From the NCBI GenBank assembly GCA_963717505.1, contig OY970342.1:480001-544000 (forward strand): a stretch of DNA of 64,000 nucleotides. The letters run 5' to 3'. Made by a program: the position numbers and the translations under genes. Below, piece after piece: positions 5,483-15,153 of the stretch. Below the pieces are notes generated by a model. The model did no database searches and was not told where the DNA came from. It saw only the letters and a list, made by a program, of their open reading frames with translations. The stretch's first letter is position 1. Each line of letters starts with the position of its first letter. This DNA comes from Candidatus Eiseniibacteriota bacterium. Lineage in GTDB: Bacteria; Eisenbacteria; RBG-16-71-46.

Positions 5483-6229
5483 ATGTCTCCGGGGGCCGCG
5501 TTCTTCATTTCCGACGCTCACCTGGGCGCGGAACCGAGGAGCGAAGAGGCCTCGCGCGAGGCGATGCTGCACGACTTCCTCGCCCACCTCCCCGGCCGCG
5601 CCTCCGCCCTCTACATCATCGGCGACCTCTTCGACTTTTGGTTCGAATATCGGACCTGCATCCCGGCCCGCCACTTCCACACCCTGAGCGCCCTGGCCAA
5701 CGTGCGCCGAGCCGGAATCCCGATCACCTACCTCGGCGGCAACCACGACTTCTGGGTCGGGCGCTTCATGCGCGAGGAACTCGGGATCGAGGTCCATGAG
5801 AACCCTCTGACACTCGACCTGCAGGGGCGAAAGCTGTGGATCCATCATGGGGATGGACTGATTGGCGGCGATCTCGGTTACAGGATCCTGAAAAGAGTGT
5901 TGCGGAACCCCCTGTGCATCGCCCTCTATGGGTTGGTGCACCCGGATCTGGGCATTCCGTTCGCGGGCTGGGTGTCGCGCTGGTCGCGCGGCTCGCGCGA
6001 CGTCCGGCCGCTCGACGGCCCCCGGCTGGTGCGGGAGGTCGCGGCACCCCGGTTCGCCGCGGGCTTCGACGCGGTCATGATCGGGCACTTCCATCACGTC
6101 TACGATCATCGCGACGGCGGAAAGCGGTTCCTGGTTCTCGGCGACTGGATCCGACACATGAGCTACGCCGTGCTGGAAGGCGGCGAGCTGAGCCTCAGAC
6201 GCTGGCCGGACTCTAGAAAAGAGCCGTGA
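5483..6229 (+). CDS. lpxH: UDP-2,3-diacylglucosamine diphosphatase (LpxH-like metallophosphatase)
   Basis: FISDAHLG, GDLFDFW, GNHDF, HGD, GHFH and LGDW motifs. Confidence 0.8.
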   Translation: MSPGAAFFISDAHLGAEPRSEEASREAMLHDFLAHLPGRASALYIIGDLFDFWFEYRTCIPARHFHTLSALANVRRAGIPITYLGGNHDFWVGRFMREELGIEVHENPLTLDLQGRKLWIHHGDGLIGGDLGYRILKRVLRNPLCIALYGLVHPDLGIPFAGWVSRWSRGSRDVRPLDGPRLVREVAAPRFAAGFDAVMIGHFHHVYDHRDGGKRFLVLGDWIRHMSYAVLEGGELSLRRWPDSRKEP

Positions 6230-7133
6230 ACCCGAAGCGATGGGTGTCGCCGAGGTCGAGGCGGAGTGGAACGTAGGCGTAGTCGAGCCGGAGACCGCTC
6301 ATCGCGTACCCGGCGCCCACGCTGTAGGTCGTCGCGTCGTCGTTGAACCGCCAGCCGCCGCGCAGCGAGGCGCCGGAGGCGTCCCGCAGCTCGAGGCCGG
6401 CCATGCTCTGACCCGCACGGCCGCGCGTGAAACGCCCTTCCAGAGCGCCCTGGAGTTCGAGTCGCTCGCCGGCACGCATCGTGTAGGTGCCGCCCCCCTG
6501 GAAGGCCATCGGCAGTCCGACCGGCTCGCCTTCGACGTCGTCGATCGTGTAGTGCGCCGAGGGGCCCAGATTCTGAACCGCACCGCCGAGCCTCAAGCCC
6601 TCGAGCCTGGCCGGCGACCACGTCGCGCCGGCGCCAAAGGCGTAGGTCGTGGCCGCGAGATTGGCGATGCGCTCGCGAATGACCTGGCCTGACAGGCCGG
6701 CGTCGAGCCCGGGCAGCAGCGCCCACCCATAGGCCACGCCCAGCTCGAGGTCGTGCGAGCCGAAGGTGCCGACGAGATTCCCCAGGTCGTCCCGCTCGTC
6801 GATCGGCTCGGTGTAAAACGCGCGAAACGACCCCGCGAGTCCGCCGCCGGCCACGCGGCCGCCGGCCGAGAAGGTGTCGTGGCGCAGCCCCGCAATCAGC
6901 TCGGTGTGCGTGCCTTCGACCTGAAACGTGCCGAGCGATGAAAGCCCCGCGGGATTCCAGAACTGGGCCTCGATGCCGCTGGCCATCGCCGTGAATGCGC
7001 CGCCCAGGGCGGCCGCGCGGGCGCCACTCGGGATCTCGAGGAACGCAAAACCGGGCGGCGCGGCGAAGGCCACGGCTGGAGTGGTGAACGCGGCCAGCGC
7101 GAGCGCAAGAAAGCGCCGGAAGTGCAGGGTCAT
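6213..7133 (-). CDS. PorV/PorQ-family outer-membrane beta-barrel protein
   Basis: Signal peptide; FLEIPSGARAAALGGA..A...WNPAGL; C-terminal DYAY...LGDTHRF and terminal Phe. Confidence 0.8.
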   Translation of the reverse strand: MTLHFRRFLALALAAFTTPAVAFAAPPGFAFLEIPSGARAAALGGAFTAMASGIEAQFWNPAGLSSLGTFQVEGTHTELIAGLRHDTFSAGGRVAGGGLAGSFRAFYTEPIDERDDLGNLVGTFGSHDLELGVAYGWALLPGLDAGLSGQVIRERIANLAATTYAFGAGATWSPARLEGLRLGGAVQNLGPSAHYTIDDVEGEPVGLPMAFQGGGTYTMRAGERLELQGALEGRFTRGRAGQSMAGLELRDASGASLRGGWRFNDDATTYSVGAGYAMSGLRLDYAYVPLRLDLGDTHRFGFTALF

Positions 7134-7221
7134 TCGAGCTCCAGATGTGGGGTCAACGAACAGCGGCCCGCCATTATGCCACGGCGGGCCGCTGCGCGCG
7201 TCGAGCGGGGTCGCGGTCGAA

Positions 7222-8718
7222 TCAGCGGCGAGTCCTGGCCCCACCACCCGAGGAACCTCCGCCGGCCGGTGCGGACATTCGGCCGTGAGACGCGCTGCCC
7301 GAAGGCGGCGAGAAATCCCGGGCCGCAGGCTGCGGCTGATATGCGGGCGGGGCCGAGCGTGCGCTGGGCTCCGGTCGGGATGAGCCGCGGGTCTCGCGCA
7401 TCGCGGGCGCTGGTGGCGCTTCGTACCGGCGGTCGGCGACTCGCTCGTAGCGGGGCGCCTCGTAGTCGGGCGCCTGGGTCGCCGGCACGCGAGGCGACGA
7501 GGGACGGCTCTCCCTTTGATACGAGCGCGACGGCCTCGGCGAATCCTCGCTCGGGGCGCGTGATGCAGGCACGCGATTCCGGCCTTCGCTGCGCACCCCA
7601 GAGGTATTGGGCCGGCCTACCGGATTCTGATTTCGGCCAGTGCGATCGACGACCTCGCGCTGTTCGATCGCTTCGCGATCGCCGACTTGCCGCCATGCCG
7701 CACCGACCGGAACCCGAACATTCCCTCCGCGCGCTCGCAGGTCGTGGGCACCGGCCATGAATCCCGGCGGCAAGGCACGGGTCGCGTCGCGGCGACGGAA
7801 CTCGCCGTCGTACTTGCTCGGCGGGATGTAGCCCGGAGGCGCCGAGGGCTTGAACCGGCGCATGCCCCCCCAGGCGCGTTGCCACGATGCCCAGCCGTAC
7901 CACGAGGTGACGTAGCGGGTCGGATACACCACGTAGCCCGGCGCGCAGCCCGGGACCCATGAGTAGACGTAGTAGGGCACGGTGCCGAACCAGTAGCTCG
8001 GGCCCCACGCCCAGCCGTAGTTCACCCGCACCGTGAACACGGAGCAGGTCGCGTAGTAGGGATCGAATCCGGACCACCACGACCAATACCCCGGACGGTG
8101 ACAGTCGTTGCACAGGTAGCGCGGATAACGAACCTCGTGGTGGACGTAGTAGCCCGAGTACGAGGTCGCGAACGACTCGGCGTCGTCGGGACTCGCCAGC
8201 ACGGTGCGGCGGATGCGCTCCATCGCCACGAACGGGTCACCGACGATCTTGCCGTCGGCGGTCACGCCCTCGGCGTCGCGCTCTTCGGCCGGAGCTTCTT
8301 CGTATCCCAGCTCCGCGGCATGCGGATCGTACGGTCGCAGATACCAGGGCAGGTCACGGAATGGATCGCGCGCGGCGATCGCAACCAGGTAGCCCTGGCC
8401 GACAGGGCCCTGGACGACCAACTGGAAATCCGGACGCTCCTCGCTCAGCCGATAGGTGCGACCGCCCTCGACCATGCCACCGCGCACGTCGAAGGGAAAG
8501 ATGAGATGGACCGCGCCCTCCGCGTCGATCTCGTAGACGATCAGGTAGGCATCGTCGGAAGAGTGCACGCGCAGGTCGATGGCCTCGCCGGGCTGGTAGA
8601 CCGAATCGTGGCCGCGCTCGGTGGTCAGGTCCACCGAGAATGCCGCGGCGATCGCAGGCAGTGCTGTGAGCGCAAACAGCGCGGCGGCCAGAACGGAAAC
8701 TCGGAAGCGTGGAGTCAT
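7222..8718 (-). CDS. Secreted DUF4384-domain protein with aromatic-rich middle and disordered Arg/Pro tail
   Basis: Signal peptide; YQPGE.I......DAYL.VY.ID..G.V.LIFP pattern typical of DUF4384. Confidence 0.7.
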   Translation of the reverse strand: MTPRFRVSVLAAALFALTALPAIAAAFSVDLTTERGHDSVYQPGEAIDLRVHSSDDAYLIVYEIDAEGAVHLIFPFDVRGGMVEGGRTYRLSEERPDFQLVVQGPVGQGYLVAIAARDPFRDLPWYLRPYDPHAAELGYEEAPAEERDAEGVTADGKIVGDPFVAMERIRRTVLASPDDAESFATSYSGYYVHHEVRYPRYLCNDCHRPGYWSWWSGFDPYYATCSVFTVRVNYGWAWGPSYWFGTVPYYVYSWVPGCAPGYVVYPTRYVTSWYGWASWQRAWGGMRRFKPSAPPGYIPPSKYDGEFRRRDATRALPPGFMAGAHDLRARGGNVRVPVGAAWRQVGDREAIEQREVVDRTGRNQNPVGRPNTSGVRSEGRNRVPASRAPSEDSPRPSRSYQRESRPSSPRVPATQAPDYEAPRYERVADRRYEAPPAPAMRETRGSSRPEPSARSAPPAYQPQPAARDFSPPSGSASHGRMSAPAGGGSSGGGARTRR

Positions 8719-8762
8719 GGCCAGCACCTCGTGGGCGGCTCGGGAACGCCTTCTATTATGCC

Positions 8763-9584
8763 TCATGGCAGCCCCGTTCGCCGCACTCTTTCGCCGTCCC
8801 TGAGGGCTCGGCGCGCGGCCAGTTCGGGGTTGCCCGGGTCCACCTGGTAGGCCCAGTCCATGACCAGTGAGCCCCCGGTCAGGCGGCTCACCCGCAACTT
8901 GGCAAAGTGATTGTCATGGGTCCAGACGAGGTAGCAGTGCCCGGGGATCAACTCTACGGTCCCGGTCGGCGACCAGCCGCCGTTCGGCGCGAAGTCGATC
9001 GCATCGAGCGTGTTCGCGTAGCCGGCATCCTGGATGTCGGTATCGGTGAACGGCGCGATCATCAGATCGGCGCCGTTCGACACCACGTAATAGACGTCGA
9101 CCGACGGATCGTCGAATGCCCGGCGACGATAGTCGGAGAAGTCCCAGCCGCTGGTCGCGGGCGCCGCCGCGGCGTCGGTCAGGACCTCGTCGAACCCCTC
9201 GGGCCGCGGCGTATCGAACACGTTTTCCTTGGACAGTTCGCTCTCGTTGCCCGCGTGGTCCACAGCCGTAACCGCGTAGTAGAGGGTGACCCCGTTCTGC
9301 AGGCTGCCGACGTTGAACTGGGTGAGCGTGGTCGAGCCCACCGGTTCGTAGAGGCATTGCGGACCGTCGGGACAGTTCGCGATGTAAATGCGATAGCCGG
9401 CGAGATCCGCTTCCGGATTGCCGAGCCAGCGGAGGTAGACCGTCTGGTCGCCGGTGACGCTGTAGACGCCACGCGGCGCCGATGGCGGATAGACGTCGCG
9501 CGGAGCCGTGGTGTCCTTGCAGCCCGAGACTGCGAGGGCGGCGAGCAACATTGCGACCGAAGAGAAGGAGGCGCGAAGGTCCAT
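8763..9584 (-). CDS. Lipoprotein with fibronectin type III domain
   Basis: Lipobox AVSG-C; PPSAP, LRW..NPEADLAGYRIY and YYAVTAVD.AGNES. Confidence 0.8.
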   Translation of the reverse strand: MDLRASFSSVAMLLAALAVSGCKDTTAPRDVYPPSAPRGVYSVTGDQTVYLRWLGNPEADLAGYRIYIANCPDGPQCLYEPVGSTTLTQFNVGSLQNGVTLYYAVTAVDHAGNESELSKENVFDTPRPEGFDEVLTDAAAAPATSGWDFSDYRRRAFDDPSVDVYYVVSNGADLMIAPFTDTDIQDAGYANTLDAIDFAPNGGWSPTGTVELIPGHCYLVWTHDNHFAKLRVSRLTGGSLVMDWAYQVDPGNPELAARRALRDGERVRRTGLP

Positions 9585-9661
9585 GACATACCCCTGCTAT
9601 CGAGGGCGCGCCGCGGCCGCGATATTCGGCTCGGTGGCGCCACAATCCAAGATGATCAAGG

Positions 9662-9676
9662 GCAATGGCCGTGCCA
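9662..9676 (-). promoter_or_regulatory. Sigma54 -24/-12 promoter of the lipoprotein/DUF4384/PorV-like operon
   Basis: Minus strand reads TGGCAC-GGCCA-TTGC, a perfect consensus, ~78 nt upstream of ATG 9584. Confidence 0.8.
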
Positions 9677-9858
9677 CCGGCCGGCCATCGGCAGGCGTTG
9701 AGCTAACTCATTGCCCTGGAATGGATCAGAGCATCCAATCGGGCCTCGCCGGCGGGCGTGTCGAGGGTCGATTCAGGTGCGCTGGCGACGCAGGTGTGCG
9801 GCTGGCGCCACACCCTCGCTTCTTGGGGGGTGCACAGGCCCAAAACCCCTTCTCAGCC

Positions 9859-10256
9859 AAAAAAACGAGGACACCGGCCCCGAAGAGCTAGCCACATCAG
9901 CCGAGACATCCCCCAATGTTGGCCAATGTCGCTGGAGACCGGTGTCCTAACAAAGAACCCGGAGCACCGCGCCACTTCCCCGGCGGGTGTTGTGGAGCCC
10001 TCGTCGTCAGCGAACCCGCCGATCTCAAGTGCTCCGGGTGTGAGGCCTTGCTCAGGTGCTGCTCGGTATTCCTCAAGCTACTTTGGTGCTTCCTGCGTCA
10101 TCTCCGAGCCAGCCGGTAGTAGAAGGTCGGTACAATGTCCAGTAGACGGGGCTCGTAACCCTTGACCTGACCCACTACAAACCGGCTAGCCCAGATTTTC
10201 TGCAACGGCCCGAGATTGTCTTCGAACCGCTTTTTGGAGGTCCCCCCCCTCCGATC
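9859..10256 (-). ncRNA. Putative ~400-nt structured sigma54-dependent ncRNA
   Basis: Upstream sigma54 motif; three long hairpins (10108-10190, 9957-10039, 9868-9948) plus small 5' hairpins; terminal U7 tract; no credible ORF. Confidence 0.6.
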
Positions 10257-10266
10257 AAGTAGATCA

Positions 10267-10282
10267 AGCAGCATCGATGCCA
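10267..10282 (-). promoter_or_regulatory. Sigma54 -24/-12 promoter upstream of the putative ncRNA
   Basis: Minus strand reads TGGCAT-CGATG-CTGCT with exact GG-N10-GC spacing. Confidence 0.65.
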
Positions 10283-10499
10283 AGCACACAATCCTCGAAC
10301 AAGAAACCCGTAATGCGTTGCGATGCAACGAGCGGTGTCGCGTGCGGCGGCGCGGTCGTGCACACGAGGCAGGCTCGCGAAGCGGTCGATCGGAAAACAA
10401 TTTGATCCCGAAAAACGCTTCGAGCGCGCAAACGCTTGCGCCGCAGAGGAATCAGGCGTGCAAGACTTTTGATAGGAGGTGGGGCGGGATTTGAAGGGG

Positions 10500-13658
<3,159 letters not shown>

Positions 13659-14160: not shown

Positions 14161-15153
14161 TCAGTATCCGCCCGCGGGGGAACGGTCGTCAACGGTCGAA
14201 TCACCCAATCCGGGGGGAGAAGCCCCCCTTGGCCCGACGGCTGCCATGCGGGCCAGGCCGTAGCGGAGCCCCTGGGTCGAGCAAATGAGGGCGGTGGAGG
14301 GGAATCGCTCGACCAGGGCATGAACGACGCGGCAGCCTGCGACCACGATGTCGGCCCGTCCTTCACCCATGGCGGGCCACAGGCGCCGCTCCCGATCGGT
14401 CGATTTCTCGATCTGCCCCATCAGGCCCGCGAGCCTGTCTCCGGTTATTCGCCAGCCCTCGAGGAGGCCGGGGTCGTAGGTGACCATTTGCCTGTCGAGC
14501 ATGGCGAGCACGGTGATCGTTCCCCCGACTCCGGCCAGCAACGGCGCTTCCAGCGGCATCAATGCACATTCATGCATAAGATGTTCGGCGACGTGCCGGT
14601 CCAGGCTTTCGATTTCCTCGGCCGCGGGTGGGTTGGTCGAGAGGAAGCGCTCGGTCAGGCTGACGGCGCCGAATGGCAGGCTGGCCCAGCGCCCGGGAAC
14701 TGTTCCCACCCCGCTGACCACCTCCGTGCTTCCGCCGCCAATATCGAAAACCAGGCAGGCGCTTCCGGCGCCCGGTCCCCCCAGCCCGGTGACGACCGCG
14801 TGATAGACGGTTCGAGCTTCCTCGTCGCCGGTGAGGATCCGAACCGGAACTCCGGCCCGATTCGAGATCAGCCGAGCGACGTCCGAGCCGTTGCGCGCAG
14901 AGCGCAGCGCCGCCGTGGCGCCCGCGAGAAGCCGCGTCGCCCCGAGGGAACGGGCCCGGCCGGCAAACTCGGTCGCGATCCGAGCCGCCCGCTCGGCCAG
15001 CTCGGGGAGAATCTCGCCGGTCCGGCCCAGATCCCGGGCCAGCCGGCAGGGCTCACCCGCTCGCGTCACGGTCGTGAGGGGCCCATCAGGAACGACGTCG
15101 GCGACCAGCAGCCGAACGGAATTCGAGCCGATATCAATTGCACCGACACGCAT
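14161..15153 (-). CDS. ppx: Ppx/GppA exopolyphosphatase family protein
   Basis: IDIGSNS, ATAALR.A.N, EEA, DIGGGSTE, GRADI and GLRYG motifs. Confidence 0.9.
   Translation of the reverse strand: MRVGAIDIGSNSVRLLVADVVPDGPLTTVTRAGEPCRLARDLGRTGEILPELAERAARIATEFAGRARSLGATRLLAGATAALRSARNGSDVARLISNRAGVPVRILTGDEEARTVYHAVVTGLGGPGAGSACLVFDIGGGSTEVVSGVGTVPGRWASLPFGAVSLTERFLSTNPPAAEEIESLDRHVAEHLMHECALMPLEAPLLAGVGGTITVLAMLDRQMVTYDPGLLEGWRITGDRLAGLMGQIEKSTDRERRLWPAMGEGRADIVVAGCRVVHALVERFPSTALICSTQGLRYGLARMAAVGPRGASPPGLGDSTVDDRSPAGGY

Follow-up and report, generated by a model that had tools for sequence, protein, structure and literature searches.

A structured RNA family of Candidatus Eisenbacteria encoded behind a putative sigma-54 activator gene

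The locus and its predicted transcript

The DNA studied here, called the window below, is a stretch of 64,000 nucleotides (nt) from a genome of Candidatus Eisenbacteria. On its minus strand, between a gene for a large sigma-54 enhancer-binding protein and an operon for envelope proteins, lies a region of about 400 nt that specifies a structured RNA behind a predicted sigma-54 promoter. We describe the structure of this RNA, its distribution among Eisenbacteria and the regulatory role that it may play. Coordinates are those of the window, and the RNA and its neighbouring genes are read on the minus strand.

A preliminary description of this region had proposed a sigma-54 promoter with a start of transcription near 10256, small 5' hairpins, three long stems and a closing CG-U7. 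Each of these elements was found in its place, and RNAfold reproduced the stems. From the promoter to the end of the predicted transcript, the features are as follows.

10311-10320, minus strand: candidate IHF-like site CAACGCATTA (CAAnnnnTTR), ~30 nt 5' of the -24 element
10282-10267, minus strand: predicted sigma-54 promoter TGGCAT-CGATG-CTGC(T), with the -24 GG and -12 GC in canonical register and a GG-GC gap of ten bases
10252-10236, minus strand: 5' hairpin GGAGG-GGGGGGA-CCUCC, beginning 4 nt past the predicted start; the most widely kept element
10231-10204, minus strand: variable hairpin P2, AGCGGUUCGA/UCGGGCCGUU, with 7 of 9 pairs changed on both sides among 34 sequences
~10195-10102, minus strand: hairpin 1 (H1), built of a 14-bp basal helix (UCUGGGCUAGCCGG/CCGGCUAGCUUGGA), a middle helix with covariation and a three-way junction
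10101-10040, minus strand: A/C-rich linker, poorly conserved
10039-9957, minus strand: hairpin 2 (H2), of varying length and sequence among relatives
9948-9868, minus strand: hairpin 3 (H3), formed by the basal helix GGACACCGG/CCGGUGUCC and a middle helix that covaries, with an invariant apex
9865-9859, minus strand: U7 tract (CG-U7), which with H3 forms an intrinsic terminator called by a terminator scan

The boxes at 10282-10268 stand in the register of sigma-54 promoters (TGGCAC-N5-TTGC), and since their GG and GC are canonical, the start of transcription is placed near 10256. Counted from there through the last base of U7, the predicted RNA measures 398 nt (10256-9859, minus strand), both ends being deduced from the sequence. 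The spacing of promoter and RNA is fixed. Among 132 distinct loci that matched a promoter-plus-hairpin pattern, the -12 GC lay 13-15 nt from the 5' hairpin in all 132, and the -24 box read TGGCAC in 100 and TGGCAT in 32. Further upstream, CAA-N4-TT(A/G) strings are similarly placed in orthologous loci; by the consensus given above, CAACGCATTA would be an IHF-like site. Within the transcript, the junction of H1 bears two small hairpins, the invariant GGGU-ACGA-GCCC and one with a GUC/GAC stem, while the invariant apex of H3, GGCCAACAyUGGGGGAUGUCnnGGCU, occupies 9924-9898 (minus strand). In the window the RNA closes with a G+C-rich hairpin and a U-tract, and a T-rich tract follows H3 in 18 of 33 orthologues.

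Structure, distribution and recovery from RNA libraries

RNAfold gave a minimum free energy (MFE) of -178.8 kcal/mol for 10256-9859 on the minus strand, with all stems recovered. One hundred dinucleotide shuffles of this strand averaged -153.2 ± 5.9 (z = -4.37), and none of them was as stable. The plus strand folded less well (MFE -145.8; z = -2.66), which agrees with the preference for the minus strand expressed in the preliminary description.

Covariation was assessed on 33 non-identical orthologues and the window copy (34 sequences), arranged in one alignment for the 5' domain (A1) and another for H3 (A2), with consensus structures taken from the folds of the individual sequences; for H1, these folds were concordant in the 34 sequences. 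In the 5' domain, 91.2% of the cells were paired and 18 pairs had changes on both sides, amounting to 84 cells. Shuffled alignments gave 24.9 ± 5.9 such cells, none of 500 reached 84, and slid controls gave at most 38. Results for H3 were similar, with 88.2% of the cells paired and 15 pairs (72 cells) changed on both sides, against 26.4 ± 4.6 cells in shuffles (0 of 500 reaching 72) and at most 45 in slid controls. Compensatory changes were present in five helices and were carried by the variable stems, namely P2, the middle helices of H1 and the middle helix of H3; in H1, two-sided changes affected 7 pairs of helix 4 and 3 pairs of helix 5. The 5' hairpin (invariant in A1), the 14-bp basal helix of H1, GGGU-ACGA-GCCC and the apex of H3 are near-invariant and thus uninformative on pairing. 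Elsewhere the 5' stem does vary: it is GGAGA/UCUCC in one genome (G058), a compensatory change, and GGAG/CUCC in the loci of family f7, with the loops GUGGAAG and CUGGGAAC. The spacer of this 5' repeat differs by 1-2 nt between loci.

The region does not look like a gene for a protein. Every frame of the 5' domain was stopped in 24-34 of the 34 sequences, the lengths were spread evenly over the three classes modulo three, and no conserved reading frame was found in this domain. Frames of the H3 block had stops in 7-19 of the 34 sequences, the block being short and little informative in this respect. A search of Rfam 15 at the gathering score returned a single tRNA in the whole window, elsewhere than the RNA, and the models of CsrB, RsmY and RsmZ did not match. 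Weak matches to mir-1269, SECIS_4 and sR39 (E ≤ 10) fell far under the gathering scores and were set aside as chance. RNase P RNA, 6S RNA and tmRNA, which the preliminary description had already discounted for this locus, each map elsewhere in the genome.

Distribution was surveyed in 151 sampled Eisenbacteria genomes, whose families are labelled f1, f2 and so on, f1 being the window's own family. By blastn, the RNA is single-copy in the window's own genome (one contig, 4.16 Mb), and 9840-10300 matched 41 of 61 related genomes and 35 of the 36 of the same family; the conserved blocks were the 5' part through H1, plus H3. A covariance model of the 5' domain (R1) matched 69 of the 151 genomes, once each, among them every other genome of the window's order (68 of 68). 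By family, these were 59/59 in f1, 6/6 in f3 (5/5 without G038, an unpublished genome included in all f3 counts) and 3/3 in f2, with 0/82 in other families. The corresponding model of H3 (R2) matched 66 genomes (f1 56/59, f3 6/6, f2 0/3), and its matches outside f1-f3 were three weak ones in f10 and f14.

The 5' hairpin reaches much further than either model. Its motif, GGAGGGGGG-N1-3-CCTCC, occurred in 136 of the 151 genomes, mostly in one copy, while a reversed control pattern was rare; by family it was found in f10 (7/7), f11 (32/32), f15 (5/5), f16 (7/10) and f17 (10/12). Together with the promoter, the hairpin pattern GGAGG-G4-6-A-CCUCC was present in 129 of the 151 genomes. A looser pattern, GGCTAGCCGG-N10-35-ACGAGCCC, was dropped, as its matches in these G+C-rich genomes were mostly due to chance. 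With the promoter-plus-hairpin pattern, a scan of species representatives yielded at least 119 stretches; among the matches listed, nearly all are labelled Eisenbacteria or unlabelled, and seven carry labels of other phyla.

Between its conserved parts, the RNA is variable. The stretch from H1 to H3 ranges from 40 to 260 nt in the 33 orthologues and is usually an A/C-rich linker followed by a hairpin. At the position of H2, most orthologues have a hairpin, frequently with a CCCGGU string; this hairpin can be a mere stub or exceed 120 nt. The preliminary description had emphasized three hairpins of equal length but different sequence. The three are indeed unrelated in sequence, and in the window they measure 83, 83 and 81 nt; since the H1-H3 stretch varies so widely in orthologues, the equality of length appears to be a coincidence of this genome. 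Similarly, the GGA motifs that it noted in the linker are present in the window but are not conserved among orthologues.

Other families depart further from the window's form. In f11 a sigma-54 box precedes an RNA of ~135 nt that comprises the GGAGGGGGGGACCUCC hairpin, a single long hairpin and U7, and beyond it come the second sigma-54 promoter and the fn3 gene. The RNAs of the further families examined combine the 5' hairpin with a long hairpin of family-specific sequence. Stems of other sequence bear the H3 apex GGGGGAUGUCCAGGCU in f5, f10 and f17. Three distant families have loci that are possible orthologues: the f13 candidate, a GGAGC-GUGGG-GCUUC hairpin, stands just 9 nt past the -12 TGC and may be transcribed only in part; f18 has a different transcript; and the stretch retrieved from f8 showed no sigma-54 box. 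As a separate observation, four f3 loci (L184, L185, L187 and L190) have ~140 extra nt between the 5' hairpin and H1, which in L184 and L185 include one more hairpin, GCAGCA-GCAGGGA-UGUUGC, with a loop similar to a CsrA site.

In a few forms, the modules enclose protein-coding sequence. In f10 and f14 (L210-L213, L218 and L250), a gene for a winged-helix protein with an AAA ATPase domain comes after the 5' module without an intervening T-tract, and an H3-like hairpin stands beyond this gene, ~1.7-1.9 kb 3' of the 5' hairpin. These are the sole families with an open reading frame (ORF) directly behind the 5' module, and the window's genome lacks an orthologue of their ATPase. In one further genome (G027, L026), an insertion of ~700 nt between H1 and H3 contains an ORF for a cysteine-rich protein of ~125 residues whose N-terminus resembles a signal peptide; the ORF is preceded by a Shine-Dalgarno sequence of its own.

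Small portions of the stretch occur in six RNA runs, and four of these, from four studies, were compared. Contigs from the RNA libraries of these studies fall within 9859-10239, with 0-4 differences.

X13, 9859-10047 and 10144-10195: 2 differences in each piece; one contig, from a relative
X16, 9868-10003: 0 differences; a 136-nt insert flanked on either side by adapter sequence
X19, 9859-10021: 2 differences; the contig ends exactly at 9859
X20, 9954-10048 (0 differences) and 10144-10239 (4 differences)

The X13 contig has 95 unlike letters between its pieces and joins parts of all three hairpins. It was rejected as a marker of the 3' end, since it comes from a relative and runs 32 unlike letters past 9859. 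The four runs leave 9588-9822 and 10246-10527 uncovered, a gap that is no sign of absence. We take the presence of the RNA in RNA libraries as support, not as proof.

Taken together, folding and covariation confirm a structured RNA with covariation-supported stems, and conservation, promoter spacing and the RNA-library contigs bear out the ~400-nt structured non-coding RNA of the preliminary description. Of the checks that it had named, those on Rfam, shuffled folds, covariation among orthologues and coding signature came out in its favour. The RNA belongs to a family that spans Candidatus Eisenbacteria, with a constant 5' module (the hairpin and an H1-like element), a frequent 3' module (H3) and a variable middle. 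The family is new; the regulatory layout is already known elsewhere. A literature search, which did not extend to the supplementary motif lists of papers on non-coding RNA discovery, returned no regulatory RNA of Eisenbacteria, and excerpts of a paper on CsrA variation that names Eisenbacteria and sRNA (PMC13443453) hold no mention of the present one.

The activator gene and neighbouring transcription units

The genes and elements flanking the RNA, from its 5' to its 3' side, are as follows.

10500-13658, minus strand: gene for an enhancer-binding protein of 1052 residues with TPR repeats, a GAF domain, a sigma-54 interaction AAA+ domain and a Fis-type HTH
9815-9776, minus strand: conserved element GGGTGTGGCGCC..GCACACCTGCGTCGCC..GCGCACC, between the terminator and the second sigma-54 promoter; kept in most f1 loci
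9676-9662, minus strand: second predicted sigma-54 promoter, TGGCAC-GGCCA-TTGC, preceding the envelope operon
8763-9584, minus strand: gene for a lipoprotein of 273 residues with a weak fn3 match (Pfam)
7222-8766, minus strand: gene for a DUF4384 protein (Pfam)
6213-7247, minus strand: gene for a UPF0164-like protein (Pfam)

Pfam assigned to the 1052-residue protein the domains Sigma54_activat (5.3e-64), TPR_12 (2.7e-36), GAF (8.2e-10) and HTH_8 (6.2e-10). Its stop codon lies 243 nt from the predicted start of the RNA. Every f1-f3 locus with a long enough flank carries an orthologue of this gene as the immediate 5' neighbour of the RNA and in the same orientation, and so do 17 of 17 loci from f4, f5, f9, f10, f11, f14, f15, f16 and f17; the f11 orthologue is full-length, with ~42% identity over 1000 residues. 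Judging from this linkage, the protein most likely activates the promoter of the RNA. The corresponding sigma factor gene, rpoN, is present in the genome as a Sigma54_DBD match of 161 bits (G000 C1:3872746-3873223) that is split over two adjacent frames, owing either to a frameshift or to a homopolymer error of the assembly. As to the region 5' of the activator gene, we observed a gene for a Ppx/GppA phosphatase on the same strand (14161-15153).

On the 3' side, a TGGCA(C/T)-N5-TTGC box also precedes the fn3 lipoprotein gene in orthologous loci. This gene is syntenic in most families, with other genes in its stead in f10, f14, f4 and f5. The element at 9776-9815 probably lies outside the RNA and is a candidate activator-binding site for the second promoter, which, with the envelope operon, probably belongs to the same regulon as the RNA. 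The core of the element, CACAC(C/G)TGCG(A/T)C, has its sole non-coding occurrence in the genome at this locus; the five other genome matches look coding and do not form a repeat family.

Two further observations concern the interval between the activator gene and the RNA. A CACACGCGAC-like string, related to the element at 9776-9815, lies 5' of the RNA promoter and is likewise a candidate activator-binding site. In L007, L010, L013, L017, L021, L025 and other loci, a hairpin with the conserved loop CACUUAGCC follows right after the activator stop codon, with a TTGATAAT-like box before it and a U-rich stretch after it; the window's copy has diverged. This hairpin could be the terminator of the activator gene or a second small RNA.

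Regulatory interpretation and known counterparts

Considering these results together, the best overall explanation is, in our view, a stand-alone regulatory RNA that is controlled by the neighbouring activator and acts in trans through its G-rich loops, to which we give a probability of roughly 0.6. According to this explanation, RNA polymerase with sigma-54 would transcribe an RNA of ~398 nt from TGGCAT-N5-CTGC, driven by the TPR-GAF enhancer-binding protein encoded just upstream, with the IHF-like site between them; the same activator would probably drive the second sigma-54 promoter, that of the envelope operon, too. The transcript would start 2-4 nt ahead of the invariant hairpin GGAGG-G4-6A-CCUCC and, in the window's order, would then run through P2, the three-way-junction H1, the variable H2 and an H3 with the apex UGGGGGAUGUC to its end in the U-tract. 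Its two invariant loops, in the 5' hairpin and the H3 apex, are both G-rich, end in GGA and lie ~300 nt apart. These loops may bind a partner in trans, and such binding would pass the signal sensed by the activator on to post-transcriptional control. A protein is a possible, if tentative, choice of partner, CsrA being the only candidate that can be named. Base-pairing of the loops to C/U-rich sites in mRNAs ranks below a protein partner and seems unlikely.

Several observations weigh against this explanation. The argument for control of the promoter by the neighbouring activator is drawn wholly from linkage. The 14-bp basal helix of H1 showed no covariation within the order (34 sequences), and the library contigs are strandless and without true ends, from RNA libraries that may hold DNA. 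The modules of f10, f14 and G027 resemble untranslated regions of mRNAs, which fits a role in cis. GGA is not enriched in the RNA, at 5-12 per molecule and a mean z of 0.06 against dinucleotide shuffles. CsrA was found in none of the seven f10 genomes (88-100% complete), a family that retains the 5' hairpin in every genome, the H3-like hairpin and, in 4 of 4 cases examined, an intact locus. The phyletic patterns of FliW and CsrA show neither clean co-occurrence nor complementarity with the RNA. When the whole genome was searched for complements of the invariant loops, only the RNA gene itself came up, and none of the results points to a partner. RNAduplex, which is ill-suited to sequences of this length, gave energies that did not improve on those of shuffled targets, namely -140.7 for the whole RNA with the 5' region of the activator mRNA (shuffled, -141.9 ± 7.8) and -99.8 with that of the downstream operon (shuffled, -104.2 ± 5.6).

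Among the alternatives, one proposed by the preliminary description is a sponge for CsrA (Rsm) in the manner of CsrB and RsmZ, in which GGA hairpin loops would titrate the single CsrA of the genome. We consider this doubtful. The csrA gene itself is present (91 bits; G000 C1:3982879-3983037, L191) and adjoins a gene for a PAS histidine kinase, not fliW. Neither Hfq, FliW nor flagellin had a match in the window's genome, nor did any of the 59 sampled f1 genomes yield a FliW. With CsrA present and no FliW found, an antagonist other than FliW would make sense. The H3 apex GGGGGAUGU and the extra f3 hairpin GCAGGGAUGU also resemble the CsrA consensus RUACARGGAUGU, reportedly obtained by Dubey in 2005 (cited in PMC13443453) through systematic evolution of ligands by exponential enrichment. 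In f7, f12 and f16, all of them families with CsrA, the 5' loops have diverged but retain GGA. However, the GGA count equals that of shuffles, with just 1-5 per RNA unpaired in the MFE fold; no more than two or three sites are conserved, the loops being ~300 nt apart; and H1, which makes up most of the conserved structure, has no GGA loop. The RNA is kept in f10, where CsrA was not found, and also in f2 and f3, despite a fliW gene adjoining csrA there. In f11, CsrA is present in 30 of 32 genomes with the short form of the RNA and no FliW. The lack of GGA enrichment and the f10 genomes thus speak against a sponge of the CsrB/RsmZ type, whereas a weaker form of the CsrA proposal, resting on two conserved GGA-containing hairpin loops, survives.

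A related proposal, which we also regard as unlikely, has the twin G5A loops dock an RNA-binding protein other than CsrA, making the RNA the hub of a phylum-specific, Csr-like circuit of global post-transcriptional control in bacteria lacking Hfq. The sigma-54 activator, sensing through its TPR and GAF domains, would switch this hub RNA on, and the modules around the f10/f14 ATPase gene and that of the small secreted protein of G027 would bring these genes under it as well. If the partner of the loops were indeed a new protein, a new post-transcriptional system would open up.

Because of the forms that bear coding cargo, cis-acting modules are kept as the main structural rival to the stand-alone RNA, improbable as we find them. 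The 5' hairpin and H1 would then be a leader and H3 a 3' end, together controlling stability, termination or translation, and the forms without an ORF would either be left over from this arrangement or attenuate the downstream operon. The ATPase gene that lies between the modules in f10 and f14 and the ORF between H1 and H3 in G027 are what such a role would look like, and read-through is conceivable in the 15 of 33 orthologues that lack a T-rich tail after H3. Most genomes, however, have no ORF between the modules: stops interrupt every frame, and lengths do not keep to multiples of three. A separate sigma-54 promoter with an upstream element, both conserved, serves the downstream operon, and the f11 form closes with a strong hairpin and U7 ~230 nt before the second promoter. 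Indeed, most forms have a terminator followed by a separate promoter, and the gene behind the RNA differs by family while the activator ahead of it is constant, which is not the arrangement of a riboswitch or cis-leader.

The preliminary description had also suggested a precursor cut into three small RNAs of ~80 nt, one per hairpin, and this is now very improbable. In its favour are the hairpin lengths in the window and the X16 insert of 136 nt, which lies between two adapters. The equal lengths, however, are not kept where H2 shrinks to a stub or exceeds 120 nt, the hairpins are unrelated in sequence and f11 has only one; moreover, the X16 insert covers parts of two hairpins and the X13 contig joins all three. 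Least tenable is the absence of any RNA, with the inverted repeats serving as DNA operators or the region coding for a small protein: GGAGG-N5-7-CCTCC and GGCTAGCC are palindromic as DNA and adjoin the promoter, and ORFs of 40-135 residues overlap the region on both strands, but the compensatory changes in five helices, the preference of G-U pairs and fold energy for the minus strand, the variable spacer of the 5' repeat, the stops in all frames and the RNA-library contigs all contradict it.

Few non-coding sequences of this phylum, which has no cultured member, are as conserved as the RNA. It is single-copy, present in almost all genomes sampled and tied to one sigma-54 activator, and is thus likely to be the chief output of a sensory pathway of importance. 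The RNA-activator pair could be reconstituted in a laboratory host, and the RNA offers a specific marker of Eisenbacteria activity in metatranscriptomes.

Several known RNAs bear comparison. CsrB, RsmY and RsmZ have from ~7 to more than 20 GGA loops and depend on sigma-70 through GacA/UvrY. GGA-containing hairpin loops and a csrA gene in the genome are common to these systems and to the present one, which differs in its two or three conserved loops without enrichment, in its sigma-54 promoter and in its persistence in f10, where CsrA was not found. GlmY and the Qrr RNAs are sigma-54-dependent, with genes beside the activator genes glrR and luxO, respectively. They are much shorter, are restricted to Gammaproteobacteria and have Rfam models; GlmY is a decoy of RapZ, and the Qrr RNAs act by Hfq-dependent pairing. 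The present RNA differs from both in having no Rfam match and no identifiable mechanistic counterpart among them.

Similar in arrangement is CrcZ/CrcY of Pseudomonas, CrcZ being ~400 nt long. The crcZ gene lies immediately 3' of cbrB and its expression depends on CbrB and RpoN (PMC5113210), and CrcZ sequesters an RNA-binding protein (PMC5113210, PMC4063720). The likeness is that of an RNA gene directly behind its own sigma-54 activator gene. The two RNAs are not homologous, and the repeated A-rich motifs of CrcZ are bound by Hfq/Crc, whereas no Hfq and no enriched repeat motif were found here.

The arrangement is also that of Pxr of Myxococcus xanthus and other myxobacteria, an RNA of several stem-loops, the first of which are conserved (PMC5568312, PMC5684412). 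The pxr gene lies 3' of the sigma-54 regulator gene nla19, across a gap of ~260 nt that contains a sigma-54 promoter (PMC5568312), compared with 243 nt here. Pxr is ~108 nt long, so that the present RNA is three to four times longer in the window's order, and its neighbour is of the response-regulator type rather than a TPR-GAF protein and belongs to another phylum. Rfam likely holds a model of Pxr, and nothing Pxr-like was among the Rfam matches at E ≤ 10. A further likeness is that the window's genome gave no match to Hfq. Since the conserved layout of activator, promoter and RNA is like that of pxr and crcZ, we read the RNA as a probable direct and conserved target of its activator. It would thereby add a further case of an activator gene followed by a sigma-54-dependent RNA, far from Proteobacteria and Myxococcota.

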